DNA of 64,000 nt from a bacterium HR10 (GTDB lineage: Bacteria; Acidobacteriota; Blastocatellia; HR10), in contig BEHM01000001.1 of NCBI GenBank assembly GCA_002923315.1, forward strand, positions 56,506-120,505, read 5' to 3'. This document shows, piece by piece, positions 15,606 through 35,022 of this stretch. Each line of letters opens with the position of its first letter. Positions within the stretch are counted from its first letter, which is position 1. Under the pieces are notes generated by a model, which saw nothing but the letters and a program-made list of their open reading frames with translations, did not search any database and had not been told where the DNA came from. The position numbers and the translations under genes were made by a program.

Positions 15606-15616
15606 ATGCGCGGGAC

Positions 15617-18258: not shown

Positions 18259-18305
18259 CTTCGGTCACCGGGGTATTGTACCATACGTCGCGAAGCCGAT
18301 GAGGG

Positions 18306-19736
18306 TCAGGAGAAGAAAGGTCTCCACTTCTCCTCGGGCGGAGGGGGGGTGAGCAAGCTCCCCGCGATCAAACCCAGGAGCGAAGCCGCCAGGGCCGGGT
18401 AGATCGTCTCAATCCCCGTCGCTTCCGCGAGCGAAGCGAAGTGCCAGATGAGCGTCACGAGCATCCCCCCGAGGATGGACGCGAGGCCGCCGGTCGTCGT
18501 CGCGCGCTTCCACAGGAAGCCGGCCAGCAGCGCGGGAGTGATCCCCACACCATACATCGTGTAGGAGAACAGGGCGGCGCGCAGCACGGTCTCGAAGAAC
18601 TGAATGAGGACGTAGCCCGCGAGACCGAGGCCGATGACGGCCACGCGCGAATAGAGGACGATCTGTCGCTCGGTCGCCTGGGGATTGATGAAGCGCTGGT
18701 AGATGTCCCGAACGATATTCGTCGCTGGGACCAGAAGGAAACTGTCGCCCGTGGAGACGATGATGGCGACGGCGGCGGCCAGCAGGACACATCCGGCGAG
18801 CACGGGCAGCCCCTCGCGCGCGGCGTACAGGAGCACCTGCTCGCTCCGACCCGAGGCCAGCTCGGGGAAGAGGCTCGATCCGATGACGGCCAGGACGATG
18901 ATCATCGTCTCGATGCAGACGGTCCCGATGATCCATCCGATGACGGCCCGACGAGCCGCGCGCTCATCGCGGGCCGAGAAGAAGCGTTGATACATATTGG
19001 CCAGACCGAGCATCAGCAGGAGCGTGGGCAGGGCATAGGAGAGGGCTTCCGTCACCGTGAAACGCCCCATGAGGCTCAGACGTTCGGCCGCGACGGCTTC
19101 TCCGAAATGAGCGGTCAGGCGCTCTCGCACCCCATCCCATCCCCCAGCTCGCGCGATGAGGAAGGGATACGCGAAGAAGATGCCGCCGAGCATGAGAAGC
19201 CCGTTGAAGATGTCCGTGTACGCGATCGAGAGTAGTCCAGCCGTCGCCGTGAAGGCCGTCACGAAGAGGAACGTGATGAGGGTGCCTGTGCTCGGGTCGA
19301 GCCCGGCGACGATATTCAAGACCAATCCACCGGCGCGGAATTGATAGGAGGCGATCACTGTGTACGCGATGATCGTGACGAAGGTGCCCAGCAAGCGCGC
19401 CCAGTGGTTATAGCGCAGCTCCAGCACATCCGGGACCGTCAACTGTTCGAGCTTGCGCGCGCGGCCGGCGATGAAATAGATCAGGCCGAGCGCGACCCAG
19501 ACGCCGGCGTCGAACCAGAGCGCAGCGAAGCCTTCGCGATAGGCCAACCCCGCGCCCGCGATGATCGAGCCCGAGCCGATCCATGTCGCCAGGAGCGTGC
19601 CAACCAGTACGGGCGCGCTCAGCTTGCGCCCGGCGACCATGAAGTCCGTCTGGGTCTTGACGACGCGCGAGGCATAAAGGCTGACGCCCATCAGAAAGGC
19701 CAGATAAACGAGCACGACAAGCACATATGTGTTCAT
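18306..19736 (-). CDS. sodium:solute symporter family transporter
   Basis: I trimmed the start to ATG 19736 (MNTYVLVV...). It has about 13 TM segments and SSF-family motifs. The 525-nt upstream extension of the raw ORF has no protein-like features. Confidence 0.8.
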   Translation of the reverse strand: MNTYVLVVLVYLAFLMGVSLYASRVVKTQTDFMVAGRKLSAPVLVGTLLATWIGSGSIIAGAGLAYREGFAALWFDAGVWVALGLIYFIAGRARKLEQLTVPDVLELRYNHWARLLGTFVTIIAYTVIASYQFRAGGLVLNIVAGLDPSTGTLITFLFVTAFTATAGLLSIAYTDIFNGLLMLGGIFFAYPFLIARAGGWDGVRERLTAHFGEAVAAERLSLMGRFTVTEALSYALPTLLLMLGLANMYQRFFSARDERAARRAVIGWIIGTVCIETMIIVLAVIGSSLFPELASGRSEQVLLYAAREGLPVLAGCVLLAAAVAIIVSTGDSFLLVPATNIVRDIYQRFINPQATERQIVLYSRVAVIGLGLAGYVLIQFFETVLRAALFSYTMYGVGITPALLAGFLWKRATTTGGLASILGGMLVTLIWHFASLAEATGIETIYPALAASLLGLIAGSLLTPPPPEEKWRPFFS

Positions 19737-20041
19737 GGAGCGCTCAGCGTAGGACAGGGCGGGCGCCGTTGTCAACCGTCGCGCGCTCGATCTTCTTTCG
19801 TTCGGGATGAACGCGGACCATTCCGACGCCGACCGATCCTTCGGCGGTGCGTGGTGGCCGTCGAGCGCGCGTTCGTCGGACGGTCGAGGGACGGGGATTT
19901 TAACCCGCCATCGGGGCTTTCCCCCTCTCCGAGGAGCATCCCGTCGGTTCTCCCGACTCTCGTCCCGAGGCGGTGCTCTCTGAACCCTCGGGGGAGGAAG
20001 GGTATGGCTTGATCGCCCGGAGGTGCATTCGCTGCCGTTTT

Positions 20042-20057
20042 CGGCACAATGGTTGCT
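20042..20057 (+). promoter_or_regulatory. candidate sigma-54 (-24/-12) promoter CGGCAC-N5-TTGCT upstream of the pentahaem cytochrome
   Basis: It has GG at -24 and GC at -12 with the correct 5-nt spacing, and lies about 160 nt upstream of ATG 20215. rpoN and a sigma-54 activator are both encoded in the window. Confidence 0.3.
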
Positions 20058-20214
20058 ACGTCGCCCCTCGGTGGGTAGCAGATGCGCGAGAGCTGAGGGA
20101 GCGCGCCTTCGGCGCATCGCGAGTGTCGGAATCGAAGGGTCAGCGACCGCCGTCGGCGAGAGGGACGCTGCGTCGGACGCGGTGATCGAGAGCCCGCAGG
20201 GAGGAGGGACGCTC

Positions 20215-21033
20215 ATGAGGCGGCGAACATGCGCCTTTGTATTGGGTCTCAGTCTGGGCATTGGGGGAGCGCTGCTCGGAGCGCGCCTCGGAGGGGCATC
20301 CCCCCTTCAGGGAAGTGCGCAGGCGGAGAATTCGTGCGTGACGTGTCATCAGCGGATCACAACCCCGCTGGAGTTGAGTCAGCGGTATTACGATTGGCAC
20401 CTCTCGGTCCATAAGGAGAGAGGGGTTACCTGTGACGTCTGTCATGGGGGGGATCCTCGGGCGCGACAGGCGCAGGAGGCTCATCGCGAGATGCGCGCCT
20501 CCTCCGATCCACACAGTCGGGTGCATGGGAAGCATCAGCCGGAGACCTGCGGCGCGTGCCATCAAGAGGTGCGCACCGCTTATCTGGCGAGCGCGCACTT
20601 TGCGAAGCTCAGCGCGGCGGGTCTGGGACCGTTCTGCAGCACGTGCCATCTGCAGATGGCGAACGCGACGGTCCGGAGTGCCATTGACGTCAGCGCACTC
20701 TGCGGCCGCTGCCACAACGCCGAAGGAGGGATCATGCCGCCGAATCCGCAGCTCATCAAGAGCGCGCAGGAGACGCTCCTAAGCCTGAGTCGGGCCAACG
20801 GGGTGATCATCTGGGCGGATCGCCTCATCGAAGCGGCCGAGGGGAAGAACCTCACCATCGCCGAGGAGCGGCGGGAGTTAGAGGCGGCTCGAAAGCTCCT
20901 GCAAGAGGCGAAGTGGGAGTGGCACGCCTTCCGCCTGGAGCCCGTGCGGGCGAAGGCCGATCGCGCCTTCGAGCAGGGGGCGAAGGTGAAAGATCGGTTG
21001 CTGCAGAAGGTCTATCCGGGGTCGCGTCCATAG
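20215..21033 (+). CDS. periplasmic pentahaem c-type cytochrome
   Basis: The start is MRRRTCAFVLGLSLGIGGALLGA (signal peptide), preceded by GGAGGGA. There are five CxxCH motifs: CVTCH, CDVCH, CGACH, CSTCH, CGRCH. Confidence 0.7.
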   Translation: MRRRTCAFVLGLSLGIGGALLGARLGGASPLQGSAQAENSCVTCHQRITTPLELSQRYYDWHLSVHKERGVTCDVCHGGDPRARQAQEAHREMRASSDPHSRVHGKHQPETCGACHQEVRTAYLASAHFAKLSAAGLGPFCSTCHLQMANATVRSAIDVSALCGRCHNAEGGIMPPNPQLIKSAQETLLSLSRANGVIIWADRLIEAAEGKNLTIAEERRELEAARKLLQEAKWEWHAFRLEPVRAKADRAFEQGAKVKDRLLQKVYPGSRP

Positions 21034-21163
21034 GGCGAATCGTTCGGGTGCCTGCGAGAGGTGCTCGGGAGGGCAGGCGAGGATTCTCGCGATCAATTGA
21101 GGAGGGGCCTCGATGAAGATCATGCGCGTGCTCGAAAGTGGCCGATCTTCTCGCCGATCCCCC

Positions 21164-21745
21164 TCAGGATGAGGACCGTCGCAAGGGCCTCGATTCGGGA
21201 GCGAGTCGCGCGAGAGCCTCCTCGACGAGGCGCCGACAGGAGGGGCAGAAGGCGTTCGATTTGATGTCCACGTGCTCGATGGAGTTTGAGAAGTGCATGA
21301 CGCAATCGAAGGTCGAGCAGTGGATGAGACCGAACGTGTGTCCCAACTCATGGAGCGCTTCCTTCTCGCAGCGCTCCAGGAAGAGTCGGCGATCCTCCGG
21401 CAGGCCGTAAAAGCGCTGGTCGAGCCGATGGACTGAGAGCACGGCCGCCGCTCCCCCAAGCTGCGCCTCCCCAAAGACGAACGTGAGGATGGGGATGAAG
21501 AGGTCCACGTCCGTCACGCCGAGCACCTTCACGGCGGGATTTCGGTGCCCTCGAACCAGTTGCGCGAGCAGCGTCGTGGAATGGTACTGCTGGCGGAGCG
21601 GGTGATAGGCGGCGTCCAACTCGATCGGATGGTCACGAATGCGACAGGAGACGGGGAGCGTCTCCGGCAAGACGAGCGCGAGGAACTCGAGGACGTCCGT
21701 GTCCACGTTCCCGATCGGGACCAGCTCGATGAGCGCCCGCGACAC
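21164..21745 (-). CDS. amzA: archaemetzincin-family zinc metalloprotease
   Basis: The sequence HELGHTFGLIHCSTFDCVMH...(16)...CPSC fits the archaemetzincin signature HExxHxxGx3Cx4CxMx17CxxC. Its start lies 12 bp downstream of the sigma-54 activator gene. Confidence 0.65.
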   Translation of the reverse strand: MSRALIELVPIGNVDTDVLEFLALVLPETLPVSCRIRDHPIELDAAYHPLRQQYHSTTLLAQLVRGHRNPAVKVLGVTDVDLFIPILTFVFGEAQLGGAAAVLSVHRLDQRFYGLPEDRRLFLERCEKEALHELGHTFGLIHCSTFDCVMHFSNSIEHVDIKSNAFCPSCRRLVEEALARLAPESRPLRRSSS

Positions 21746-21757
21746 GATCGCTCCTCG

Positions 21758-23119
21758 TCATACCGGCGAATCGGGTTTGAGCTGATACTTGCGAATCTTA
21801 TTGTAGAGCGTCACGCGATCAATGCCGAGCAACCGCGCGGCCTGCGAGATGTTCCACCTCGTCTCCTGCAGGATCCGCTGGATGTGCTGCCGCTCGACCT
21901 CGGCGAGCGTCTTTCCCACCGGCTGTCCGCGCGCTTCGTTCACCTGCAAGGGCAGGTCTTCGGGGCGGATCTCCCGTCCGCGGCAGACGAGCACCGCGCG
22001 CTCGATGGCATTTTGCAGCTCGCGCACGTTTCCCGGCCAGTCGTAGCGCTCCAACAGCGCCAGGGCTTCGGGCGAGATGCCGAGGATCGGCTTGTTCATG
22101 CTCTGCGCGAACTTCTTGAGGAAATGCTCGGCCAGAAGCGGGATGTCCTCCCGCCGCTCGCGCAGCGGCGGGATGGTGATGGAGAAGACGTTGAGGCGAT
22201 AATACAGGTCCTCGCGGAATCTCCCCTCGGCGACCAGGGCTTCCAGGTCTTTGTTCGTCGCCGCGATCAGACGGAAGTCCACGGGGATCGGCGTATTGCC
22301 GCCGACGCGAAAGATCTTCTTCTCCTCGAGCACGCGCAGCAGATCCACCTGCGTCTTGAGGCTGATGTCGCCGATCTCGTCCAGAAAGAGCGTCCCTCCA
22401 TCGGCCAGCTCGAATTTCCCCTTGCGCCGATAATGGGCGCCGGTGAAGGCGCCCTTCTCATGGCCGAACAGCTCGCTCTCGATCACCCCTTCGGCCAGAG
22501 CGCCGCAGTTGACGATGACGATCGGCATGTAGCGGCGGGGACTGTTGGCGTGAATGGCGCGGGCGACCAACTCCTTGCCCGTCCCGCTCTCCCCGCGGAT
22601 GAGGACCGTCGTATCGGACATGGCGACGAGGCGAATCTGTTCGAGCACTCGCTGAATGGCTGCACTCTGTCCGACGATCTCATGGAACAGCGCCATCTCC
22701 TGAATCCGCTCGCGCAGCCGGACGTTCTCGGCCACCAAGCGCTTCCGCTCGACGGCGTTTCGGATGATGTGCTCCAGCTGATCGGGATCGAAGGGCTTCA
22801 CGATGTAATCGTAAGCACCCTGCTTCATCGCCTCCACGGCCGTTTCGACCGAAGCGTAAGCCGTCATGATGATGATGGAGGCCTCCGGGGCGATCTCCCG
22901 AATGCGCCGCTGCAGTTGCAGTCCGTCCATTCCGGGCATCTTGATATCAATGAGGAAGATGTCGTAGCTCGACTCGGCCAGCTTCTGCAAGGTCTCCTTC
23001 CCCGATCCGGCGACGTCCACCGTGTATCCCTCCTCGCGGAGCCAGTTCCCCAGGGATTCCCGCACGATGGCCTCGTCGTCCACGATCAAAATGCGGATCG
23101 CGCTTTTGGATACCGTCAT
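21758..23119 (-). CDS. sigma-54-dependent response regulator (NtrC/ZraR family: REC-AAA+-HTH)
   Basis: It has a receiver (ILIVDDE...), an AAA+ Walker A (GESGTGKE), the sigma-54 contact motif GAFTGA, and a C-terminal Fis-type HTH. A 4-bp overlap with the upstream kinase gene indicates coupling. Confidence 0.9.
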   Translation of the reverse strand: MTVSKSAIRILIVDDEAIVRESLGNWLREEGYTVDVAGSGKETLQKLAESSYDIFLIDIKMPGMDGLQLQRRIREIAPEASIIIMTAYASVETAVEAMKQGAYDYIVKPFDPDQLEHIIRNAVERKRLVAENVRLRERIQEMALFHEIVGQSAAIQRVLEQIRLVAMSDTTVLIRGESGTGKELVARAIHANSPRRYMPIVIVNCGALAEGVIESELFGHEKGAFTGAHYRRKGKFELADGGTLFLDEIGDISLKTQVDLLRVLEEKKIFRVGGNTPIPVDFRLIAATNKDLEALVAEGRFREDLYYRLNVFSITIPPLRERREDIPLLAEHFLKKFAQSMNKPILGISPEALALLERYDWPGNVRELQNAIERAVLVCRGREIRPEDLPLQVNEARGQPVGKTLAEVERQHIQRILQETRWNISQAARLLGIDRVTLYNKIRKYQLKPDSPV

Positions 23120-24798
23120 AGCCTGCTCTCCATGTGGTGAGGCGCGTCTCCGGAGAAGACCTCGAAGGCGCGATCAGTCTGATCCTCCGCTCCCGTCGGC
23201 GGGGTGAGTGGGAGCCGGAGGGTGAACGTCGTCCCGTGCCCGAGCGCGGACTGCACGTGGATATCCCCCCCGTGCCGGTGAAGGATGCTGAGCACGACGG
23301 AGAGCCCGAGGCCGAGGCTCCCCTCCTTCTCCTTCGTCGTGAAGAAGGGTTCGAAGATGCGCCGTTGCGTCTCTTCATCCATCCCGACGCCGTTGTCGCG
23401 GATCGCGATCTCAACCCGCTGCGCCTCAGGGAGGAAACGCGAGGTGACGGTGAGCATGCCTTCTTCTGGCCGCACCGCTTCGCAGGCATTGATCAGGAGC
23501 GCGACCAGCGCTTGCCGCATCTGCTGTCCGTCGCAGACGACGGGCGGCACGTCCGGATCGAGTTGAACCTCCGTCTGCAGGCTCATCAGCTCGATCTTAT
23601 GCTGAATCAGGCGGAGCGATTGACGGATGAGTTCGTTGACATCATGCGGCTGGAAGTGCGCGCGCGAGGGGCGGACGAATTGCAAGAGGTTCTTCACGAT
23701 CTCCCCGCAGCGGGCCGATTCGCTGGCGATCATCTCCAGATACTGGCGCGCATTGGCGAGGTCCTCGGGCGAGAACCCGTGATCCCCCATCTTCTTGAGC
23801 AGGAGCTTGGCGGTCGTGAGGATGCCGGAGAGGGGGTTGTTGATCTCGTGAGCGACGATGGCGGCGAGTTTCCCGATGGAGGCCATGCGCTCGGCGTGCA
23901 TCATCTGCTCGTGCGTGCGTCGCAGCTCGGCCGTCTTCTCCGCCACGCGCTCCTCCAGGGTGCGCGCCCAGCTCGTCAGCTCCTCATGAGCGCGCTTCAA
24001 CTCCTCGGTCATGGCGTTGAATGACGCCGCCAACTCGCCCAGTTCGTCCCGCGCGGTGAGCGGGATCTTATGGTCGAGGTCGCCAGAGGCGACGCGCTCG
24101 GTCCCCCGCTTCAGGTGCCGGATCGGGACATGGATCATCACGGCGGTGACGGCCACGACAACGAGCGCGACAAAGAGGATGCTCCCCAGGAAGAGGAAGA
24201 AGAGCTGGCGCTGCCCTTCCGCGATGGCCGCGTCCACCGGGGCGAGCGAGAGCGTCACGTCCAACACGCCGAGCACCGATTGCGCCGGCGAGTGCGCGTG
24301 GCAGGAGGCCGTGTAACATCCCGGTTCGTTCTCAATGGGATTGATGAGTCCCAAGATGCGCTCTCCGCGCTCTCCGAGGTACACGCGGACGCGATCCGGA
24401 CGATCCAGGCGAACAAGCGGCTGCTCCTGCGCATGGCAGCCGTAGCAGGCCTCGGCGCGCTTGTCCACGAACGTATTCACCTCGCGCGCATCAGTGGAGA
24501 AGCTGATCCGACCCTCTTTGTCGAAGATGCGGATCTTGTGAATCCCGGGCTGCGCGCCGATGGTGAGGAGCGTGTGATAGATCTCATCCCGATGGTTCTG
24601 CAGCATGCTGTAGCGGAGCCCCCGCTTGATGACGTCGCTCGTGCGATCCGCGCTGGCGATGGTCATCTGCTCCAGGTCGCGCTTGTGCAGCCGGAGGGTT
24701 TGGTAGCCGAGCAGCGAGAAGACAAACGCCATGCTCGCGATGAGCCAAAGGGTCAGCTTCACGCTCACGCTCGATGTCCAGCGTCGCCACCCCCTCAT
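23116..24798 (-). CDS. sensor histidine kinase with haem-c-motif periplasmic domain (NtrB/ZraS-like HisKA)
   Basis: I chose the start at MRGWRRW (24798). The roughly 170-aa periplasmic segment between its two TM helices contains CYGCH (CxxCH) and CYTASCH (Cx4CH). It also has HAMP, an H-box (AHEINNPL) and HATPase_c. Confidence 0.8.
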   Translation of the reverse strand: MRGWRRWTSSVSVKLTLWLIASMAFVFSLLGYQTLRLHKRDLEQMTIASADRTSDVIKRGLRYSMLQNHRDEIYHTLLTIGAQPGIHKIRIFDKEGRISFSTDAREVNTFVDKRAEACYGCHAQEQPLVRLDRPDRVRVYLGERGERILGLINPIENEPGCYTASCHAHSPAQSVLGVLDVTLSLAPVDAAIAEGQRQLFFLFLGSILFVALVVVAVTAVMIHVPIRHLKRGTERVASGDLDHKIPLTARDELGELAASFNAMTEELKRAHEELTSWARTLEERVAEKTAELRRTHEQMMHAERMASIGKLAAIVAHEINNPLSGILTTAKLLLKKMGDHGFSPEDLANARQYLEMIASESARCGEIVKNLLQFVRPSRAHFQPHDVNELIRQSLRLIQHKIELMSLQTEVQLDPDVPPVVCDGQQMRQALVALLINACEAVRPEEGMLTVTSRFLPEAQRVEIAIRDNGVGMDEETQRRIFEPFFTTKEKEGSLGLGLSVVLSILHRHGGDIHVQSALGHGTTFTLRLPLTPPTGAEDQTDRAFEVFSGDAPHHMESRL

Positions 24799-24814
24799 GT
24801 CCCCATCCCTGTAT

Positions 24815-26392
24815 TCACGGCCGATGACACACCGCGCATTCCTCCTGCGCGCTGAAGGAGGTCTTCCCGTCATGACATCGTCCGCAATGTCGCGCGTCGT
24901 GCCAGTCGCGCGCGGGACGCGACGAGGCCTCCCCCTCGACCTTCAGGATGTGGAACGGCTCACGATGACACACGGTGCAGTCCGGTCGCTCCCAGTTGAT
25001 GTGCGAAGCATGTCGGAACGTGACCGGCCCCGGGCTCCCCTCCCCCTGCGGGAACGTGACGTCCGGTGGGATGTTCAATCGTTCCAGCCCTTCGGCGATG
25101 TTCGGCTCTTCTTCGAGGCGAGACGGAGAGGCGAGAGCCCGCTCGCGATAGGACAGGCCGCTGTAGGCCACGCCGAGGGCGCCGAAGAAGACGATTCCGC
25201 CGAGGATCAGGATCAGAGGTGTCGTCCCGATCCACGGTCTTCGGAGAACGGCGACGGCCGGTGGGACTGCGACCTCCCGCTCCATCTCCGGAAAGACGGG
25301 CAGATATTTCACCGCCAACCCGAACAGGGCGAATCCCAGTGCTACGATCATGAAGGTCACCGAGAGCTCGGTCCAGCTTGGGAAGTACGAGACGCCGGAG
25401 GAGGCCTCCATCCCCGTGATGCTCACGTTCAACCGGTTCATGATGAAGCCCAGGACGACCAGGAGGGCGGAGACGAACAGGCCGAAATGGTCCGTCCGAA
25501 CGCGGCGCACGCTCAGCAGCAGCATGGGACCGATCACGCCGAGCATCATCTCGGCCAGGAACATCCGCGCCTCGTAGGTCGGCTCCAAGACGTGAGCGAG
25601 TGCACCGCGCCCGACCAGATCCTGAACCTTCAGCACCAGATACACGGCCAGCGCGACGACGATCACTTTGCCCAGATCGGTGAGCAGATCAATCTCCAGT
25701 CGTTTCCGGAATGCCCGGTAGCTCAGGAACGACTCGAAGATGGTCATCGCGCACCCGAGCGCGATGGCCGAGATGAAGAAGAAGACGGGCAGAAGCGGCG
25801 AGTACCAGAGCGGATGCAGCTTCTCCGGCACGATCAGATAGAGCGAACCGAGCGAGGATTGATGAAGCGTCGAGAGGATGACGCCGAGAATGACCAATGG
25901 TACCGTCAGCGCGTGCAGGATCCGAAGTGGCCTTTGAAGTCTCAAGCGCTCGAACACCATGGGGCTGAATTCCAGTGCGAGCACTGTCGTGTAGAGCATG
26001 ACGCACCAGGCCACCTCGAACATCACCGAGTGGGGATTCCACATGACCAGCGGATGCCAGATGCGATACGGGCGTCCCAGATCAAAGAGCAGGGCCACAA
26101 TGACCAGCAGGTACCCGAGGAAGGCCGTGAGGATCGTCGGGCGAATGATCGGGCGAAATCGCTCGATGTTGAAGATGTAGACGACGGCGCTGATGGTGAA
26201 TCCTCCGGCGGCCAGCGCGACCCCGCAGAGGACGTCGAAGCCCACCCACAGGCCCCATGGGAAGGCATCGCTCAGGGCCGTGCTCGCTCCCAATCCTCCG
26301 GTGAACCGGACGACCGTGCTGTAGAGGCCGGCACCCAAGATGACCAGAAACACCAGCTGCCAGAAACCAGGCCGTCGCAGGCGCCACCTCAT
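24815..26392 (-). CDS. NrfD/PsrC-family polytopic membrane subunit fused to a C-terminal cytochrome c7-like trihaem domain
   Basis: I chose the start at MRWRLRRPGFW (26392), preceded by AGGGAGG. It has about 10 TM helices of the NrfD type. The C-terminus (VTFRHASHINWERPDCTVCH...CGRCH...CAVCH) resembles PpcA-type trihaem cytochromes. Confidence 0.7.
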   Translation of the reverse strand: MRWRLRRPGFWQLVFLVILGAGLYSTVVRFTGGLGASTALSDAFPWGLWVGFDVLCGVALAAGGFTISAVVYIFNIERFRPIIRPTILTAFLGYLLVIVALLFDLGRPYRIWHPLVMWNPHSVMFEVAWCVMLYTTVLALEFSPMVFERLRLQRPLRILHALTVPLVILGVILSTLHQSSLGSLYLIVPEKLHPLWYSPLLPVFFFISAIALGCAMTIFESFLSYRAFRKRLEIDLLTDLGKVIVVALAVYLVLKVQDLVGRGALAHVLEPTYEARMFLAEMMLGVIGPMLLLSVRRVRTDHFGLFVSALLVVLGFIMNRLNVSITGMEASSGVSYFPSWTELSVTFMIVALGFALFGLAVKYLPVFPEMEREVAVPPAVAVLRRPWIGTTPLILILGGIVFFGALGVAYSGLSYRERALASPSRLEEEPNIAEGLERLNIPPDVTFPQGEGSPGPVTFRHASHINWERPDCTVCHREPFHILKVEGEASSRPARDWHDARHCGRCHDGKTSFSAQEECAVCHRP

Positions 26393-26471
26393 ACCTCCCT
26401 CCTTCGCCAGACCGCATCCGTCGCGCGAGTGGCACGCGCGAGGAAGCCGGATCTCCCTTTGCGTCGAGCCG

Positions 26472-27305
26472 TCATGACGAATTCGTTGAGTCGGATGCCG
26501 AGGATGATCCCGATGGCTCCGGGAGATCACGCGGCGGTTCTCCGGAGTCGCGTCCTCGCTCCTGGCGCTCTCGGCGTTGCACCTCTTGGCGCCGATTCGT
26601 GATCCACCAGATGCCTCCGAGCAGAACGCCCCCGACGATGACGAAGTTGGGGATCTTCTGCAAGACCTGCCACGTCAGCAGGGGGAGCGGCTCCCGGAGC
26701 AGATCCGTTCGGTAGCCCAGGCGCTCGAACGGGACATCCGAGAGCAGCAGGACCGAGGTTCCACCGACTTCCTCCAGGCCGTAAATCCTCGGCACGTACT
26801 TCTGCGGGTGAGCGCGAAGTCGCGCGCGGGCCTCCTCGATCAGCTCCTGACGATCCCCGAACTTCGTCGCTCCCGTGGGACAGACTTCGGCGCATGCCGT
26901 CGGTCGCCCTGCCACGAGGCGATCGGCACACAGATCGCACTTTCGGATGCGCGGCAGGATCTTCCGCCACTCATACTTCGGGATCCCGAAGGGGCATGCC
27001 AGCATGCAATAGCGGCATCCGATGCACCGCTCTTCGTGATAGATGACCGGGCCGGCCGCCGTCTTCTCCAACGCGCCGACCGGACAGACGGACGCGCACG
27101 TCGGGACCTCGCAGTGCATGCAGAGCTGGCGGACGAATCGTCCCCCGCGCTTCTTCACGACCGTATAGGTTTGGTCCGACAGCCGATCCTCCAAAAAGTG
27201 CGTCGCTGTCGGGGGGAGCCGGTTCCGCTCCTTGCACGCTTGGTAGCAGGCGCCGCATCCGATGCACAAGGTCGCATCAAAGAGGAGGCCCTTTTTGCTG
27301 CCCAT
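26472..27305 (-). CDS. 4x[4Fe-4S] ferredoxin-type subunit (NrfC/HybA/PsrB-like) with a C-terminal TM anchor and no signal peptide
   Basis: There are four Cys clusters (CIGCGACYQAC, CMHCEVPTCASVCP, CIGCRYCMLACP, CDLCADRL...CAEVCP) and a C-terminal helix (IVGGVLLGGIWWI). The start is the second ATG (27305), 6 nt after GGAGG. Confidence 0.8.
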   Translation of the reverse strand: MGSKKGLLFDATLCIGCGACYQACKERNRLPPTATHFLEDRLSDQTYTVVKKRGGRFVRQLCMHCEVPTCASVCPVGALEKTAAGPVIYHEERCIGCRYCMLACPFGIPKYEWRKILPRIRKCDLCADRLVAGRPTACAEVCPTGATKFGDRQELIEEARARLRAHPQKYVPRIYGLEEVGGTSVLLLSDVPFERLGYRTDLLREPLPLLTWQVLQKIPNFVIVGGVLLGGIWWITNRRQEVQRRERQERGRDSGEPPRDLPEPSGSSSASDSTNSS

Positions 27306-27555
27306 ACGCATCCTCCACTAGGAGGCGATGCAATTTCCATTCCACGCCTGGATCGTGAGGTCGCTTTCAGCAGCCGGCCACTGAGAGCCGTCCGGTCAAG
27401 CGGTTACAGCAGGGTGGCTCCCTCCTCTCATCCCCCGCGACTGCGCGCGAGGGAGAGGGGTGGGGCAAATCACTCGCTTCCTGAGGCGCGATTCGCGCCT
27501 CCGGCGAGGCTTCGACCTCAAGTGAGGGTCGGCAAAACGCCTTCCTTCGCTCGCT

Positions 27556-28248
27556 TCACCCCTCGGCTGGATGCGGGCTGCGCAGGAATGTTCGGGTGAA
27601 CTCCTCCCAACTGGCTTCATCCAGAGCCTCCAGGACGCCATCGGTCCACTGCCCGCCGTCCTGCAGGACGTGTCCGAGAGCCGCCTGCGGCATCGGCCGC
27701 CACGTGAGGAACTCCTTGAAGCGTTCGATCTCGCACTGGAGCCACGCCCGAGCTTCCTCGGCGACCAGCAGATGGCGTAAGTGCGCCGCCAGGTTCTTCG
27801 GCGTCAGCGTGCAGATCCATCCATCTTCGTACGGATCCATTCGCCCCGTCTCTGGCTGGCGCATGAGGATCTCATTGACCGCGCTCACCACTCCATCGAG
27901 CGGGGCGCGGAAGACGGCCCGTCGGCCCCCCTGCGTGATGGCGAAGAGCGGATCACCCCGCCGCACCATGACGCCGACTTTCGGCAAGTCCACGGCATCC
28001 ACGCGCCCGATGGCTCGACGCGCGAACTCATCCATGCCGACGAATGTCCGTCCGCTCGGTTCCAGGCGCACCCACGTGTGCCCTTCGTCCAGGAAGAGAC
28101 CGGCAGGGATGGAGACGGTCTCGAAGGCGAGCGTCGGACGCAGCGCCGGTCGCCTCACGGGACGTCCCTGTCGGGCCTCAGCCCATTGGACGACGGAATC
28201 CACGAGGATGAATCCGATGATCGTGAGAATGACAAAGAGAGCGACCAT
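27556..28248 (-). CDS. membrane-anchored glycine-cleavage-H-like (GcvH-fold) protein without the lipoyl-lysine
   Basis: It has an N-terminal TM (MVALFVILTIIGFILV). The GcvH-like core reads HTWVRLE...VGMDEFA...VDLPKVG...PYEDGWICTL. The position aligned to the lipoyl-Lys (ESVKA in GcvH) reads TQGGRRA. A strong RBS (GGAGGTGA) precedes the start. Confidence 0.6.
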   Translation of the reverse strand: MVALFVILTIIGFILVDSVVQWAEARQGRPVRRPALRPTLAFETVSIPAGLFLDEGHTWVRLEPSGRTFVGMDEFARRAIGRVDAVDLPKVGVMVRRGDPLFAITQGGRRAVFRAPLDGVVSAVNEILMRQPETGRMDPYEDGWICTLTPKNLAAHLRHLLVAEEARAWLQCEIERFKEFLTWRPMPQAALGHVLQDGGQWTDGVLEALDEASWEEFTRTFLRSPHPAEG

Positions 28249-28251
28249 AGT

Positions 28252-29184
28252 TCACCTCCTCTCCGGAGATCGCCTCCGAGGCGCACTCACCGTGCGCCCG
28301 ATCCGTGGCTGCAAGAACCGCGCGATCACCTGTTCCCATCGCGCGGGACCAAGGACTTCCATGAGCGATTCCATCGCAGCCCGCGTCAGCATCTCCTGCG
28401 CCGTGCACTCCCCTTCAAGGGGAACGCCCCCATCTTGGAGCGTGCGGCCTGCGGCAGAGACTTCTGGGGGCGTCCCCAAAGCGCGCAAGGCCGCGCGAAC
28501 CGCTCGGTGCAGCTTCGAAACTTCCCGCTCATACCAAGAACGCGCCTGCTCCCCATAGAGCAGGTGCTTCAAACTCTCCCGCAAACGTTCCGGTCGCAAC
28601 AGTAGCAGCCATCCGTCCCCATACGGATCGTGATTGATGAGGGAGGGGTATCGCGTGAGCCGCTCGTTGAGCTGAAGGATGACACCCGTCAGAGGAGCGG
28701 ACAGAATGATCTCCCCGGCCTGATGCGCCAGCTTACCCAGCGGGCGTCCGGCGATCACGCGCGCGCCCACTTCCGGAAAGCTCACCTGATAAATCCGCCC
28801 GAGGAGCTTCTGTCCGAAATCATCCAGTCCGATTCGCACGTCCCCCCGCCGCTCGATGCGCGCCCACACATGCGTCGGATGGTAGAAGAGCGCCTCCGCC
28901 ATGTGGAAGCCACCTCGGCTGAAGAGGCGGTGAGACGCCGTGCGCTCACCGTGAGATCGTGAGCTTCCCTCCTCACCGGCGATCTCCCTCGTCCGCTCCC
29001 GAAGGGCGCGGTCAAAAGGGCAATGGTCGCATTCGTAGTCGCGATCGCAAAGTTTGTAGTCCACGATCCCCGCCAACATCCACACGCACTGGAGCACGGG
29101 AGCAGCACCCTCGCGCTCGATGGAGAGCGGATGAGCTCCAGGGCCGGTGGCCTCGGTCGGTCCTCTCGACAGCACCTCGTCCAT
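28252..29184 (-). CDS. GcvH-like protein with an N-terminal Cys-rich motif
   Basis: I chose the start at ATG 29184 (MDEVLSRG), preceded by GGGAGGG. The Cys motif is CVWMLAGIVDYKLCDRDYECDHCPFD, followed by a GcvH-like core (THVWARIE...IGLDDFGQKLLG...HDPYGDGWLLL). The raw ORF start at 29331 is a TTG inside a regulatory palindrome, which is why I rejected it. Confidence 0.55.
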   Translation of the reverse strand: MDEVLSRGPTEATGPGAHPLSIEREGAAPVLQCVWMLAGIVDYKLCDRDYECDHCPFDRALRERTREIAGEEGSSRSHGERTASHRLFSRGGFHMAEALFYHPTHVWARIERRGDVRIGLDDFGQKLLGRIYQVSFPEVGARVIAGRPLGKLAHQAGEIILSAPLTGVILQLNERLTRYPSLINHDPYGDGWLLLLRPERLRESLKHLLYGEQARSWYEREVSKLHRAVRAALRALGTPPEVSAAGRTLQDGGVPLEGECTAQEMLTRAAMESLMEVLGPARWEQVIARFLQPRIGRTVSAPRRRSPERR

Positions 29185-29210
29185 TGTCCCTCCCTCAACT
29201 CTCCCTTGAG

Positions 29211-29226
29211 GGCAATCGATGTGCCG
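29211..29226 (-). promoter_or_regulatory. candidate sigma-54 promoter (minus strand: CGGCAC-ATCGA-TTGCC) for the GcvH-like operon
   Basis: On the minus strand there is GG at -24 and GC at -12 with 5-nt spacing. The predicted TSS is near 29200, about 16 nt before ATG 29184 and spanning its RBS. Confidence 0.4.
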
Positions 29227-29317
29227 CGCGACGTCCTCTCCGGCGGCGTGGAAGTCCTTCGATCCGAAGAACATGCGCGCGCTCTGACCAGTGGCGCGGC
29301 CTTCTCGCGCTGCGTCC

Positions 29318-29332
29318 GTTGAATTCTTCAAC
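29318..29332. promoter_or_regulatory. palindromic operator/enhancer site 1 (GTTGAA-TTC-TTCAAC)
   Basis: A perfect 6-3-6 inverted repeat. The extended 18-bp sequence CGTTGAATTCTTCAACGC is identical to site 3. Confidence 0.45.
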
Positions 29333-29384
29333 GCGAGCCGAGGGCCAGCTGGGGCAAGTCTCAGCGCATCGCGCGCTTAGTCAT

Positions 29385-29399
29385 GTTGAAGAATTCAAC
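29385..29399. promoter_or_regulatory. palindromic operator/enhancer site 2 (GTTGAA-GAA-TTCAAC, the reverse-complement form)
   Basis: A perfect inverted repeat. Its centre is 67 bp from site 1 and 22 bp from site 3. Confidence 0.45.
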
Positions 29400-29406
29400 A
29401 CCTGTC

Positions 29407-29421
29407 GTTGAATTCTTCAAC
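29407..29421. promoter_or_regulatory. palindromic operator/enhancer site 3 (GTTGAA-TTC-TTCAAC)
   Basis: A perfect inverted repeat, about 61 bp upstream of the -24 element of the plus-strand sigma-54 promoter. Confidence 0.45.
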
Positions 29422-29474
29422 GCACGGGGCACTCCTTCCCGGTTTAACTTCAGCAGAATCAATGTCCCTGCCTC

Positions 29475-29490
29475 TGGCATGCGGCTTGCA
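29475..29490 (+). promoter_or_regulatory. sigma-54 promoter TGGCAT-GCGGC-TTGCA for the C_GCAxxG-dihaem gene
   Basis: A near-consensus -24 (TGGCAY) and -12 (TTGCA) with 5-nt spacing. The predicted TSS is near 29500. RBS GGAGGGA lies at 29524-29530 and ATG at 29537. Confidence 0.5.
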
Positions 29491-29536
29491 CGAAGGAAAA
29501 AGCGGAAGTGCTGATCTCATCATGGAGGGATGAGCA

Positions 29537-30340
29537 ATGAGGAAGACGCTGACGCGAAAAGAGTTCCTCACGTTGACGACCAAATGTGCCACATGCGCCG
29601 CCGTCGGTGCAGCTGGGCTGAGCCTCCTCGGAAGGGAAGGGATCGCCCAGATGGATCTTCCGCCGTGGCCGTGGCCCTATCGAAAGCTCGATCCCGAGTA
29701 CGTGCGCAAGCTCGGGCACGAGGGGTATTGGGAGAAAGGATATGGCTGCGCCTATGGCGCTTTCAGAGCCATCATCATCCCATTGCGCGAGGCGGTCGGG
29801 TATCCCTATACGATGATCCCCACGGAGCTCATGATCTGGGGGCACGGGGGCGTCGTCGGATGGGGCGGAACGTGTGGGGCGCTCCTTGGGGCCAGCGCCG
29901 CTATTCAGCTCGTGTGCGATAAGCCGACGGCCGATCGGCTCATCCATGAATTGCAGGGGTGGTACACGCAAGCGCTCCTGCCGACGGACATCAGCAACGA
30001 GTACGCGCAGACAGGGCAGTTCTTCGTCCAGAAGTACACGCGACCACTCCCGCAGAATGCCGCAGGCTCACCCCTGTGTCACATCTCGGTGACCTTGTGG
30101 TGCGAGCGTTCGGGATTCACCGCTTCCTCACTTGAACGCAAAGAGCGCTGCGGCCGGCTCACAGGTGATGTCGCCGCTCGCGCCGTGGAGCTATTGAATC
30201 AATGGGCTGATGGTCAATTCCAGAGCATCTATGTCCCACCGGAGTCCATCGCGACCTGCCTCACGTGTCACGGGGATAAGGGGCTGGACAACGTGAAGGC
30301 CAAGATGAACTGCACGCAGTGCCACGCGCCGCATCCGTGA
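29537..30340 (+). CDS. C_GCAxxG_C_C-family putative redox protein fused to a C-terminal dihaem cytochrome c, with a Tat-like (RK) signal peptide
   Basis: The signal is MRKTLTRKEFLTLTTKCATCAAVGAAG. The family motifs are GYGCAYGAF and GGTCGALLGA. Two CxxCH motifs (CLTCH, CTQCH) sit in the last 40 aa. Confidence 0.65.
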   Translation: MRKTLTRKEFLTLTTKCATCAAVGAAGLSLLGREGIAQMDLPPWPWPYRKLDPEYVRKLGHEGYWEKGYGCAYGAFRAIIIPLREAVGYPYTMIPTELMIWGHGGVVGWGGTCGALLGASAAIQLVCDKPTADRLIHELQGWYTQALLPTDISNEYAQTGQFFVQKYTRPLPQNAAGSPLCHISVTLWCERSGFTASSLERKERCGRLTGDVAARAVELLNQWADGQFQSIYVPPESIATCLTCHGDKGLDNVKAKMNCTQCHAPHP

Positions 30341-30483: not shown

Positions 30484-32331
30484 TTAGGAGACTCCTCGAA
30501 CGGGGGGCGCGCTCCCGTTCAGGAGCGCTTCATCGGGGAGCTCCAGTCGGAGCTCTTGGAGGCTTCCGAGCAAAAGCTCACGCACTTCGGCAGAGCGTGA
30601 GGCGGCGAGCGCCTGGCGAACGACCTCGCGCACGCGCGTCAGCTCGCATGCTCGCACGAAGTCCTTGATGAGCGGGATCGCGCGCGGGCGCATGCTCAAG
30701 ATACGGGCTCCCAAACCCAGCAGGACCAGCGCATGCAGCGGATGCGCGGCCATCTCGCCGCAGACTTCAAGGGGGCGGCCTGCGCGCTCGGCCGCCTGGA
30801 TCACGTGCCGCAGAGCGCGCAGCACGGCCGGATGCAGCGGATCATAGAGCGAGGCCACGCGATCGTTATCCCGATCCACCGCCAGCAGGTACTGGATGAG
30901 ATCGTTGGTCCCCAGGCTGAGGAAATCCGCCACGGCAGCCAGCTCATCGGCGAGCCACACGGCGGCAGGCGTCTCGATCATCACGCCCACGGGAAGACGA
31001 TCCGGCGCGGCGATCCCTTCTGCGCGCAGTTCACGGCATGCGGTCTGAAGCAGGTGTCGGACCTGCTCGACTTCCTCCAAACTCGTGATCAGGGGGAGGA
31101 CGAGGCGCAGATTCCCGAAGGCGGCGGCCCGCACGATGGCGCGCAATTGGGTTTTGAGAACCTCCGGCGCGCGCAGCGAGAACCGAATGGCGCGGAGCCC
31201 GAGCGCCGGATTCCGCTCGGGGAGCCATGGCTCCGAAGACTCGGACTCCATCTGCCGGTCGCGCAGCGCATGAAGGGTGCCGAGCGCGGCCATCTGATTT
31301 TCGTCCCAATCCACCGTGCGAATGGCGACCCCGTCGCGCCCGGCCACTTCCGCGGCCTGACGATACGCCTCCAGTTGCAGCTCTTCCGAGGGCAGTTCCG
31401 GAGCTGCCTGCAGGAAGAGAAATTCCGTGCGGAGCAAGCCAATCCCGCATGCGCCGAAACGGTGCAGGTCATCCAATTCAGAGAGACGCTCGATGTTCGC
31501 GCGGATGGTGATCGGAACGCCGTCGCGCGTCATCGTGGGGAGAGGGGCGCGTGCCTGCCATCGGATCCAATGCTGTTCGCGCTCCTGGCGCTGCCGCTCA
31601 TAATGCTGAAGGACATCTGGGGAGGGACGGACGAAGACGAGCCCTCGCGTCCCATCCACGAGGACGAGCGCCTGATCTTCGATCTGCGCGAGCGCCCCAC
31701 GAAGACCCGATACGGCCGGGATGCCCAGCCCACGGGCGAGAATGGCCACGTGCGACGTCCATCCCCCTGTGCCGAGGATCAAGCCCGCGATGCGCTGCGG
31801 ATCGAGTTCCCCAAGCAGGCTTGGCGGGAGCGTCTCGCTCACCAGGACCGCACTCTCCGGAAAGGCGCAGGTGGAGCGGTCCCCCGAGAGCACCCTGAGC
31901 AATCGGTTCGCCACATCTTCGATATCACTGCCACGCTCGCGCAAATCATCGTCCTTGATCTCCGCATAGATGGCCAGGATGCGATCAGTGACCAGTTTCA
32001 CCGCCCATTCGGCGTTGACGGCGTTGGTGCGGATGAGGCTTTCGATCTCGCCGAGGATCCCCGCATCCTCCAACATCAGCACGTGCGCATCCAGGATATA
32101 GGCGTGTTCTTTCCCCAGGGCGTGCTCCATGCGTTGCCGCAGGACGCGCAATTGCTCGCGCGCGATGCCCACGGCCTTGTGGAAGCGGGCCACCTCGGAC
32201 TCGATCTCCTGAGGAGCGAGCCGCCGGCGGAAGATCACTCGTCCGCGCCAAGGCGAGTGCACGGCCGGTCCCCACCCGATCCCCGGCGAGATGCCCAGTC
32301 CGCGGAGTATGATCTCCGAATTCGCCGTCAC
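30484..32331 (-). CDS. ptsI: phosphoenolpyruvate-protein phosphotransferase (PTS enzyme I)
   Basis: Full-length EI similarity, with the active His context GGWTSHVAILARGLGIPAV and a PEP-utilising C-terminal domain. Confidence 0.9.
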   Translation of the reverse strand: MTANSEIILRGLGISPGIGWGPAVHSPWRGRVIFRRRLAPQEIESEVARFHKAVGIAREQLRVLRQRMEHALGKEHAYILDAHVLMLEDAGILGEIESLIRTNAVNAEWAVKLVTDRILAIYAEIKDDDLRERGSDIEDVANRLLRVLSGDRSTCAFPESAVLVSETLPPSLLGELDPQRIAGLILGTGGWTSHVAILARGLGIPAVSGLRGALAQIEDQALVLVDGTRGLVFVRPSPDVLQHYERQRQEREQHWIRWQARAPLPTMTRDGVPITIRANIERLSELDDLHRFGACGIGLLRTEFLFLQAAPELPSEELQLEAYRQAAEVAGRDGVAIRTVDWDENQMAALGTLHALRDRQMESESSEPWLPERNPALGLRAIRFSLRAPEVLKTQLRAIVRAAAFGNLRLVLPLITSLEEVEQVRHLLQTACRELRAEGIAAPDRLPVGVMIETPAAVWLADELAAVADFLSLGTNDLIQYLLAVDRDNDRVASLYDPLHPAVLRALRHVIQAAERAGRPLEVCGEMAAHPLHALVLLGLGARILSMRPRAIPLIKDFVRACELTRVREVVRQALAASRSAEVRELLLGSLQELRLELPDEALLNGSAPPVRGVS

Positions 32332-32618
32332 GATCCCAATCGCTCCTCCTCTTCACCGAATTTCGACTCGATCAACCGGCAGATGGCTTCGATCGCCTCC
32401 ACCTCGTCCTCTCCGGATGTGGTGATGTCCAGATGCGTCCCCGCCGATGCCGCCAGCAGCAGGACGCCGAGGATGCTCTTGGCGTCCGCCGTCTGTCCCG
32501 TATCGGAGCGGGCGAGCGTGATCGCGCTGCGGAACCGATTGGCCGCCTGCACGAGCTTGGCGGCTGCGCGCGCATGCAATCCCAGACGGTTGGCCACCTG
32601 CACCGTTCGTCGCTGCAT
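32328..32618 (-). CDS. ptsH: phosphocarrier protein HPr
   Basis: An His15 context (NRLGLHARAAAKL) and a Ser46 region (GQTADAKSILGVL). Confidence 0.85.
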   Translation of the reverse strand: MQRRTVQVANRLGLHARAAAKLVQAANRFRSAITLARSDTGQTADAKSILGVLLLAASAGTHLDITTSGEDEVEAIEAICRLIESKFGEEEERLGS

Positions 32619-32624
32619 CGCCGG

Positions 32625-33038
32625 CTATCGCTTCGCGGGCGTGAGGATCTCGCTGGCCAAATAGATGTTCTTCTGCCCCTGTTCTTTGACCTTGCGCGCT
32701 ACGGTGAGCAGATCGTCGTTCGGGTCTTGATTGGCGAGCTTGAGAATCATGGGCAGATTGACGCCGGTGACGATCTCCACCGGCTCGACGCCCAGGAAGG
32801 TGGCCGCGATATTGGTCGGCGTTCCTCCGAACATATCCGTCAGCAACAGCACGCCGCGCCCGCTGTTGACCCGCTCGATGGCCCGACGGATCGTCTCGCG
32901 CGCGACCTCCACATCATCATGCCAGCCGATGGAGACGGCCGTGATGTGGCTGATCTGACCGACGATCATCTCCGCGGCGTTCACCAGTTCCGTGGCCAGT
33001 TGTCCATGCGTGATGACGACGCCTCCGATGAGTCCCAT
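32625..33038 (-). CDS. PTS EIIA component, mannose/fructose family
   Basis: The sequence MGLIGGVVITHGQLA...LTDMFGGTP is the EIIA-Man fold with the phosphorylatable His in ITHG. Confidence 0.8.
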   Translation of the reverse strand: MGLIGGVVITHGQLATELVNAAEMIVGQISHITAVSIGWHDDVEVARETIRRAIERVNSGRGVLLLTDMFGGTPTNIAATFLGVEPVEIVTGVNLPMILKLANQDPNDDLLTVARKVKEQGQKNIYLASEILTPAKR

Positions 33039-34049: not shown

Positions 34050-34052
34050 GCG

Positions 34053-35015: not shown

Positions 35016-35022
35016 CGCGCCC

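Follow-up and report, generated by a model that had tools for sequence, protein, structure and literature searches.

A predicted sigma-54-regulated operon for an iron–sulfur/NrfD–cytochrome c7 module with its own haem-motif sensor kinase in the Acidobacteriota bacterium HR10

Described NrfD-type systems and the HR10 locus

A three-gene module consisting of a C-tail iron–sulfur (FeS) protein, a HybB-like quinol oxidase and a c-type cytochrome has been described (Microbiology 2024, PMC10924467), and HybB-type subunits possess 10 transmembrane (TM) helices, the peripheral subunits of the reviewed complexes being placed on the periplasmic face in the drawings (PMC8076601). Here we consider a block of seven minus-strand genes from bacterium HR10 (Acidobacteriota; Blastocatellia; GenBank assembly GCA_002923315.1), which lies at 21164-29184 of a 64,000-nucleotide stretch of contig BEHM01000001.1 (positions 56,506 to 120,505, forward strand; G+C 64%), hereafter the window. 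The block encodes an FeS protein and an NrfD-type membrane subunit fused to a trihaem c7 domain, together with a sensor kinase, a sigma-54 activator, an archaemetzincin and two GcvH-like proteins. From sequence and genome comparison we judge, with moderate confidence, that what is conserved is an operon which regulates itself and encodes a cytochrome c:menaquinone oxidoreductase module of the Hmc/Nhc/Hyb kind, facing the periplasm; an earlier reading of the bare sequence (the original prediction) had taken it for an electron conduit from cytoplasm to periplasm.

In the described three-gene module, the FeS protein carries a twin-arginine translocation (Tat) signal or is encoded beside an Fe-Fe hydrogenase that carries one, the cytochrome is usually octahaem and no conserved genes were found in the flanks. 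The same study includes a signal-less FeS variant which probably hitchhikes through Tat on hydrogenase, and FdnH, too, is exported without a signal of its own, being carried by its catalytic partner (PMC10924467). The HR10 block displays the same three-part architecture and predicted topology, but here the flanks are conserved and hold a dihaem kinase, a sigma-54 activator, an archaemetzincin and GcvH-like proteins.

Hmc of Desulfovibrio (HmcB/HmcC) and the related Nhc also combine a tail-anchored 4x[4Fe-4S] protein and a 10-helix HybB-type NrfD protein with a periplasmic multihaem cytochrome of the c3/c7 class. Unlike Hmc, the HR10 block contains no 16- or 9-haem cytochrome, and its gene map includes none of HmcD, HmcE (NarI-like) and HmcF (HdrD-like), hence no cytoplasmic arm; its cytochrome is a trihaem domain fused to NrfD, its FeS protein lacks a signal peptide and its regulators are different. 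The FeS and membrane subunits are homologous to HybA and HybB of Escherichia coli hydrogenase-2, with which they share a twin arginine after the tail anchor (present in HybA) and a GLG..FPWGLW motif; HybA, however, has its own Tat signal, and HybA/HybB partner HybO and HybC, not cytochromes. Alternative complex III (ACIII; ActB/ActC) and Qrc resemble the block in joining a cofactor-less NrfD to a periplasmic FeS subunit and c-type haems, whereas the block has neither a molybdopterin-like ActB1/QrcB protein nor a second NrfD, and its scores reach 172 bits for QrcD (cut-off 570) and 71 bits for QrcC (cut-off 400). On the regulatory side, CbcBA of Geobacter sulfurreducens is reportedly a quinone-linked inner-membrane cytochrome module dependent on a neighbouring sigma-54 activator, BccR; unlike the HR10 membrane subunit, CbcB is a dihaem b-type protein and not an NrfD protein, and the module is not known to include an FeS subunit or a similarly arranged haem kinase.

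The block is thus related to named complexes yet a member of none, since all its respiratory-subunit scores in NCBIfam fall below the equivalog cut-offs. The suggestion of the original prediction that it is not a named complex holds for membership of Hmc, hydrogenase-2, Qrc and ACIII; HmcB/HmcC and HybA/HybB are nonetheless the best-scoring families.

Gene content and conservation of the block

The gene map was drawn from a listing of open reading frames (ORFs), codon-position G+C and an external gene call. The seven genes of the operon are tightly packed save for a 250-nt gap before the FeS gene, and two cytochrome genes flank them:

28252-29184, minus strand: soluble GcvH-like protein with a cysteine motif (310 aa)
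27556-28248, minus strand: GcvH-like protein with an N-terminal TM helix (230 aa)
26472-27305, minus strand: tail-anchored 4x[4Fe-4S] FeS protein (277 aa)
24815-26392, minus strand: NrfD with c7 trihaem domain (525 aa; PF03916, PF14522/TIGR04257)
23116-24798, minus strand: sensor histidine kinase (560 aa)
21758-23119, minus strand: REC-AAA+(GAFTGA)-HTH_8 sigma-54 activator (from domain searches)
21164-21745, minus strand: archaemetzincin (NF033823)
20215-21033, plus strand: pentahaem cytochrome c (272 aa; five CxxCH and a signal peptide), convergent with the operon end
29537-30340, plus strand: dihaem split-Soret cytochrome c homologue, divergent from the operon start

All nine genes were found where the original prediction had placed them, and its domain calls were borne out in hidden Markov model searches of Pfam and NCBIfam. 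The proteins are already in GenBank gene by gene (GBC80958-GBC80966), where the names given to them (FdnH, 'Ni/Fe-hydrogenase 2 b-type cytochrome subunit', ZraS, GcvH) are generic or mislead, and their nearest relatives are in metagenome-assembled genomes of Blastocatellia and other Acidobacteriota.

A genome scan seeded with the NrfD-c7 family gave 80 loci, with relatives in at least 591 species genomes, and synteny in the 80 loci was assessed by tblastn with the window proteins and by all-against-all ORF clustering. The recurrent gene order is one to three GcvH-like genes followed by FeS, NrfD, kinase, sigma-54 activator and archaemetzincin genes, and by record title the loci come from about ten phyla, including Acidobacteriota, Bacteroidota, Ignavibacteria, KSB1, Myxococcota, Methylomirabilota, Eisenbacteria, Abyssobacteria and Kryptonia. 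A separate scan of metagenomes, which started from the sensor domain of the kinase (an alignment of five sequences), returned the same neighbourhood: NrfD in 53 of the 57 kinase-centred loci with enough upstream DNA, the activator in 51 of 51 and the archaemetzincin in 43 of 43. The original prediction had staked itself on this neighbourhood being kept in related genomes, which it is in both sets of loci, and its view of the genes as one functional unit is supported. The literature searched yielded no description of the cluster, nor of the combination of a signal-less FeS protein, a fused c7, the obligate trio of dihaem kinase, sigma-54 activator and archaemetzincin, a conserved palindrome and GcvH-fold proteins.

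The FeS and NrfD subunits

The FeS protein has 16 cysteines in four cluster motifs, no signal peptide and a single C-terminal TM helix, so that all three features ascribed to it in the original prediction were found. Its family scores are highest for HmcB (257 bits, cut-off 420) and HybA (215 bits, cut-off 263), with FdnH also close (NCBIfam), and its best solved relative in a PDB sequence search is FdnH (1KQF_B, 2e-33). With its TM anchor behind the 4x[4Fe-4S] domain it is of the tail-anchored HybA type, but no twin-arginine signal was found on the protein or on a conserved encoded partner.

The membrane subunit matches PF03916 at 89.8 bits (cut-off 25.8) and contains no redox cofactor motifs; the NrfD part scores 348 bits for HmcC (cut-off 550) and 318 bits for HybB (cut-off 450). 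There are 11 hydrophobic segments, namely the 10 TM helices of NrfD and an extra helix preceding the c7 domain, and as read from the sequence the loops obey the positive-inside rule, with R/K-rich cytoplasmic loops and a cytoplasmic N-terminus. The c7 domain matches TIGR04257 at 51.7 bits (cut-off 40), has three CxxCH motifs, at residues 472, 503 and 519, and is closest to GSU1996. These two matches and the eleventh helix agree with the NrfD-type subunit ending in a periplasmic c7-like trihaem domain that had been proposed.

Cytochrome partners

The cytochrome partner of the FeS/NrfD pair varies in a modular way. At least a quarter of the loci (21 of the 80, with a full-length match) encode c7 as a fusion to NrfD. 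In both Methylomirabilota loci (L030 and L037, the sequence being read in L037) c7 is encoded by a separate gene with a Sec signal, and 14 Terriglobia loci have a monohaem cytochrome c of class I instead.

The two cytochromes that flank the HR10 operon were counted as parts of the system in the original prediction. The genes and their haem motifs are as it described; both genes, however, lie on the strand opposite to the operon as separate transcription units and do not belong to the conserved cluster, the pentahaem gene, specific to the HR10 lineage, being absent from an 83%-identical relative, and the split-Soret gene, a lineage-specific regulon member, from a 66% relative. The split-Soret protein aligns over its full length with the Desulfovibrio desulfuricans protein (PDB 1H21, E=1e-44), including both C-terminal CxxCH motifs and the C_GCAxxG_C_C domain, and scores 194 bits in NCBIfam against an equivalog cut-off of 400. 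It differs from the D. desulfuricans protein in its predicted co-regulation with an NrfD module and in its Tat-like signal, TRKEFL, which has RK instead of RR; this conserved motif is the only Tat-like signal in the HR10 block. The pentahaem gene is 272 aa long according to NCBI, whereas the gene calls of several other assemblies contain only a C-terminal fragment of 99 aa. A role for its product as an ActA equivalent was considered and dropped, the gene being missing from close relatives.

GenBank's naming amounts to a different reading, in which the FeS and membrane subunits are the HybA/HybB of a hydrogenase-2-type enzyme. The genes for its catalytic subunits would lie elsewhere in the genome, and its small subunit, bearing a Tat signal, would export the FeS protein. 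HybA and HybB are indeed high-scoring families, a tail-anchored FeS protein which lacks a signal and is probably carried by a hydrogenase has been described (PMC10924467), and one locus, L006, has the subunits of a periplasmic [NiFe] hydrogenase and a maturation protease in the cluster, the small subunit carrying an RRDFMKF Tat signal. L006 is, however, the only locus among the 80 with hydrogenase genes in the cluster, a search of the 64-kb window found none, the scores remain under the HybA and HybB cut-offs, and wherever a partner of the FeS/NrfD pair was identified it is a cytochrome, whether fused c7, separate c7 or monohaem. We therefore consider this reading very improbable. In L006 itself, whose cluster is typical in other respects, the genes for the small subunit, the large subunit and the protease (14129-17302) separate the kinase gene from the activator gene; a C-terminal anchor is absent from the small subunit.

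Sensor kinase, activator and sigma-54 promoters

The kinase consists of a TM helix, a periplasmic domain of 170 residues (30-198), a second TM helix, HAMP, HisKA and HATPase. Its periplasmic loop carries CYGCH(118) and CYTASCH(161), i.e. one CxxCH and one Cx4CH motif, and this pair is present in 59 of 61 orthologues; in a cross-phylum alignment of 12 sequences, residues M65, N68, C118, C121, H122, C161, C166, H167 and H169 are invariant. A search of the sensor domain against PDB sequences gave no match even at E<=10, and the match to PF21563 (Mcp40H-20_sensor) is weak (19 bits, cut-off 27), as it is in relatives. PF21563 may correspond to the periplasmic haem-c sensors of Geobacter chemoreceptors, which likewise are periplasmic domains with a covalent haem motif near the C-terminal end; the HR10 sensor differs in having two motifs (CxxCH and Cx4CH) and a kinase output. 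The pattern fits a dihaem periplasmic redox or ligand sensor. The activator matches PF00072, PF00158 (240 bits) and PF02954 and has GAFTGA in its translation, as expected of an NtrC-class enhancer-binding protein. A sensor kinase with periplasmic haem-c motifs, a GAFTGA activator and an archaemetzincin are thus encoded in one operon, as proposed.

The candidate regulatory elements are as follows (the palindromes are given without strand):

29211-29226, minus strand: sigma-54-type -24/-12 element CGGCACATCGATTGCC of the main operon, 26 nt upstream of the ATG at 29184, with equivalents before the first operon gene in relatives
29318-29332: palindrome GTTGAATTCTTCAAC, candidate activator site 1, about 92-107 bp upstream of the operon -24 element
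29385-29399: palindrome GTTGAAGAATTCAAC, candidate activator site 2
29407-29421: palindrome GTTGAATTCTTCAAC, candidate activator site 3, at a distance of 54 bp upstream from the -24 element of the split-Soret gene
29475-29490, plus strand: sigma-54-type -24/-12 element TGGCATGCGGCTTGCA, 46 nt upstream of the split-Soret gene, with a perfect equivalent in the 83% relative (L083)
20042-20057, plus strand: sigma-54-like element CGGCACAATGGTTGCT, 157 nt upstream of the pentahaem gene
27329-27344, minus strand: weak sigma-54-like motif TGGAATGGAAATTGCA in the 250-nt gap before the FeS gene, with a similar motif before the FeS gene in L001 and others

A strict scan, which required GG and GC and at least 9 of 11 consensus positions, gave 12 sigma-54-like sites on both strands of the window, four of them correctly oriented in intergenic regions of the block. 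With up to two mismatches the whole-window count is not above chance (16 found, 18.2 expected), and the significance of the sites lies in their position and their conservation in relatives, not in this count. Three perfect copies of GTTGAA-N3-TTCAAC lie between the two divergent sigma-54 sites and nowhere else in the window, where 0.61 would be expected even at two mismatches. They stand 54-107 bp upstream of the two -24 elements, which is the usual geometry for enhancer-binding proteins.

The arrangement recurs beyond HR10. L083 also has three palindromes between two divergent sigma-54 sites; palindromes and sigma-54 sites are present in L084 and L082 as well, and other phyla show both kinds of element ahead of the operon. 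Of 74 evaluable loci, 24 have a sigma-54 motif no more than 200 nt from the first gene or the FeS gene (two windows per locus), compared with 1.8% of single control windows, and 35 have a palindrome at -500 to -40, compared with 3.1% of controls. The conserved -24/-12 sites and the conserved palindromic upstream site give good support to the prediction that the encoded activator governs, through sigma-54, a regulon made up of the operon, its own regulator genes included, and in HR10 the split-Soret gene.

The three sigma-54 sites that had been proposed in front of the cytochrome genes and the operon were all located, and conservation and palindromes favour control of two of them, those of the operon and the split-Soret gene. 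No activator palindrome was found near the pentahaem promoter or the internal site before the FeS gene, where the best candidates have five mismatches. The pentahaem site at 20042 is a good -24/-12 match in the right place, and may be real and served by another activator; the internal site at 27344-27329 is weak and its status uncertain. The close spacing that had been remarked on at the GcvH-like-side promoter is real and would imply a short leader, the -12 element and the ATG at 29184 being 26 nt apart; the FeS-proximal site is spaced in the same way. A scan of the block for sigma-70 promoters and terminators stayed at chance level and was uninformative. The pentahaem promoter region is overlapped by the reading frame of an SSF transporter (18306-20261), which continues without a stop for about 175 codons ahead of the probable start at 19736; because of the high G+C, the long ORF as listed is an artefact.

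The near-obligate coupling, in both directions, of the dihaem kinase and the FeS/NrfD module can also be understood in another way, with the FeS/NrfD/cytochrome chain serving to equilibrate the kinase haems with the quinone pool, so that the two-component system reports the redox state of the pool and the electron flux is not respiratory. This would suit the loci titled Terriglobia and Acidobacteriaceae, where a monohaem cytochrome c is the only partner, cultured members of both groups being aerobes. It would also suit the KSB1 loci in which receiver-GcvH fusions take the place of the sigma-54 activator, and the confinement of the palindromes in the window to the module's own promoter region. 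Structural genes ahead of regulators in one sigma-54 operon are, on the other hand, the usual layout of an inducible respiratory module, the hydrogenase within the L006 cluster and the two additional HR10 cytochromes point to a real electron flux, and a 10-helix NrfD with four FeS clusters would make an expensive sensor. A mainly sensory chain thus appears distinctly improbable to us, and an oxidoreductase under the control of its own sensor remains our preferred interpretation.

GcvH-like proteins and archaemetzincin

Both GcvH-like proteins match PF01597 and retain the fold, with H-protein scores of 66-82 bits against cut-offs of 116-117. Neither has the lipoyl lysine: the position of E. coli K65 is occupied by G/E/N or A/G/E. 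A lipoyl-carrier or sulfur-relay role was dropped for this reason. The original prediction had both proteins anchored in the membrane, which is the case only for the product of 27556-28248, with a TM helix from residue 2 followed by positive charges; the other protein has no TM helix and is marked by a conserved N-terminal C-x12-C-x6-C-x2-C motif (CVWMLAG.VDYKLCDRDYECDHCPFD).

Loci of the KSB1/Zhuqueibacter type encode fusions of a receiver domain (REC) to the GcvH-like domain, as TM-REC-GcvH and REC-GcvH, with no sigma-54 activator adjoining (L011 8032-9225; L018 2337-3134 and 3164-4360; L044 16556-17707; L014 7985-9169). These fusions in place of the activator, and the charges of the anchored protein, indicate that the GcvH-like domain is cytoplasmic and acts like a response-regulator output. 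Our guess is that the GcvH-like proteins are regulatory or assembly partners, not redox carriers. In L082 a GcvH-like gene (17378-18324) has moved 5 kb downstream, beside cbb3 oxidase genes, keeping a sigma-54-like site and palindrome of its own; the same locus has a malic enzyme gene between its activator and archaemetzincin genes.

The archaemetzincin scores 175 bits for NF033823 (cut-off 145), and its motif HELGHTFGLIHC, with HELGHTFGLIH fitting HEXXHXXGXXH, places it in this family of zinc metalloproteases. Its gene is the tightest-linked accessory of the cluster, always following the activator gene (43/43).

Orientation of the FeS domain and proposed function

The absence of a signal peptide led the original prediction to place the FeS subunit on the cytoplasmic side; the evidence points the opposite way. 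Apart from the homology, over its whole length, to the periplasmic and tail-anchored FdnH, HybA and HmcB, the distribution of charges places the domain outside: directly after the anchor helix there is a conserved N/K/H-R-R and a charged tail (NRR in HR10). The positive-inside loops of NrfD, with the N-terminus in the cytoplasm, point the same way, as does c7, which has to be periplasmic and comes after helix 11. A natural fusion protein, P0047, has the order FeS, anchor, K-rich linker, NrfD, helix 11 and c7, and its AlphaFold2 (AF2) model, which was used solely for counting helices and for fold matches, has 1+10+1 helices, an even number (12) between the FeS domain and c7. FdnH is the best fold match for its FeS part, and ActC (6BTM_C, E=2e-8) for its membrane subunit. 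In a full-library search, four FeS-NrfD fusions among more distant homologues, P0312, P0315, P0316 and P0438, were found to start with canonical twin-arginine signals. Taken together, homology, charges, helix count and Tat-signal fusions make it quite likely that the FeS domain lies in the periplasm next to c7, as in the Hmc, Nhc and Hyb modules. Two observations may be added: the twin arginine after the tail anchor (WWITNRR, KRR or HRR) is strongly conserved, in the window (26472-26600) and in all 77 orthologues, and the P0312 gene sits amid multihaem cytochrome genes.

On our preferred interpretation, the c7 trihaem domain, or elsewhere the separate c7 or monohaem cytochrome c, would exchange electrons with the four [4Fe-4S] clusters on the periplasmic face, and the FeS subunit would feed the quinone site of the cofactor-less HybB-type NrfD subunit, with the split-Soret and pentahaem cytochromes as putative local periplasmic partners in HR10. 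The kinase would sense the periplasmic redox state through two covalently bound haems and phosphorylate the NtrC-type activator, which, as sequence and comparison suggest, would bind GTTGAA-N3-TTCAAC and so switch on, from their sigma-54 promoters, both the operon and the split-Soret gene divergent from it. As the operon includes the regulator genes, positive autoregulation would follow. The domain identities, topology signals, synteny and regulatory motifs are observed, whereas we infer the direction of electron flow, the haem occupancy, the input of the sensor and the route of FeS export.

Several observations weigh against this interpretation. No signal peptide was found on the FeS subunit in 77 loci, the homologues being 250-285 aa long save for three of 295-301 aa, and no conserved partner with a Tat signal in the 80 genome loci; signal-less FeS-NrfD fusions can, moreover, be solitary genes, and the export of the FeS domain is consequently unexplained. 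The AF2 model of P0047 has a pLDDT (predicted local distance difference test score) of 67.6 overall and only 33-55 in the FeS domain, and, as mentioned above, the respiratory-subunit scores all stay under the equivalog cut-offs. About one cluster in four has no GcvH-like gene beside it, and any role given to the GcvH-like proteins or to the archaemetzincin is a guess. Two of the solitary signal-less fusions, P0302 (L087 7001-8923) and P0308 (L088 7001-8866), have no cytochrome, GcvH, kinase or Tat-partner genes nearby.

The want of signal peptides and of a conserved Tat partner, and the existence of solitary signal-less fusions, are also what speaks for the scheme first proposed, in which the tail-anchored FeS protein stays in the cytoplasm and forms a transmembrane conduit with NrfD and the periplasmic c7, possibly fed by the GcvH-like proteins with the four-cysteine one as donor; in the few loci examined, moreover, the signal-less subfamily has cytoplasmic GcvH-like proteins beside it, whereas the single relative with a Tat signal that was looked at has none. 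But NrfD has no cofactor with which to move electrons across the membrane, and the reviewed complexes are drawn with periplasmic peripheral subunits (PMC8076601). The conserved RR and K/R-rich linker after the anchor, followed by the NrfD N-terminus, imply the even helix number counted in P0047, homologous fusions bear Tat signals, and the absence of the lipoyl lysine from the GcvH-like proteins, with their fusion to receiver domains, suggests signalling over redox. A conduit with a cytoplasmic FeS domain is quite unlikely on this evidence, and the module probably does not carry electrons across the membrane as was first proposed.

It is conceivable, though unlikely, that the signal-less tail-anchored FeS subfamily, whose members invariably come with a HybB-type NrfD, at times as a fusion protein or standing alone, does something new among NrfD complexes. 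Either (a) its FeS domain would be cytoplasmic and part of a new transmembrane redox device served by the cytoplasmic GcvH-like partners, or (b) it would reach the periplasm by an undescribed route, which may for example be the recognition of the twin arginine after the C-terminal anchor, or help by the GcvH-like proteins or the archaemetzincin.

Neighbouring genes

The original prediction drew attention to rpoN, 8 kb from the block. Its position is confirmed by the gene call (35535-37010), but its proximity was dropped as a meaningful feature. rpoN belongs to the usual lptB-rpoN-hpf-hprK-rapZ-phosphotransferase system (PTS) cluster, so that its closeness is coincidental, and the neighbourhood is gone in the 66% relative. 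The full lptB-rpoN-hpf-hprK-rapZ-EIIA(Man)-HPr-ptsI cluster adjoins the block at 30484-37817, a juxtaposition which is kept in the 83% relative and lost at 66% identity. Elsewhere in the window, two large hybrid sensor kinases (REC-PAS-HisKA-HATPase and HAMP-PAS-PAS-HisKA-HATPase-REC) are encoded at 199-6174 beside an NMT1-type binding protein, and a 350-aa protein with a long coiled coil and a C-terminal PD-(D/E)XK nuclease domain is encoded at 10761-11813, adjoining polA.

Significance

Redox chemistry in the periplasm is connected to the quinone pool mainly through NrfD-type modules, and the variant described here has relatives in abundant soil Acidobacteriota as well as in Bacteroidota, Ignavibacteria and candidate phyla. 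The database names FdnH, hydrogenase-2 cytochrome b, ZraS and GcvH are misleading for its genes, and the pentahaem gene could escape automated surveys, since the gene calls of other assemblies show only a fragment of it. Bacterial archaemetzincins, and GcvH-fold proteins that are linked to receivers and not lipoylated, are here given a genomic context for the first time. With its own haem sensor, a predicted DNA site for the activator and clear sigma-54 promoters, its regulatory logic is directly testable. It also poses an export puzzle, namely how a four-cluster FeS domain with neither a signal peptide nor an encoded partner reaches the periplasm, if it does. Were either of the two possibilities raised for the signal-less FeS subfamily true, the widespread seven-gene cluster of soil Acidobacteriota and numerous other phyla would define a respiratory unit of a new, redox-sensing kind.

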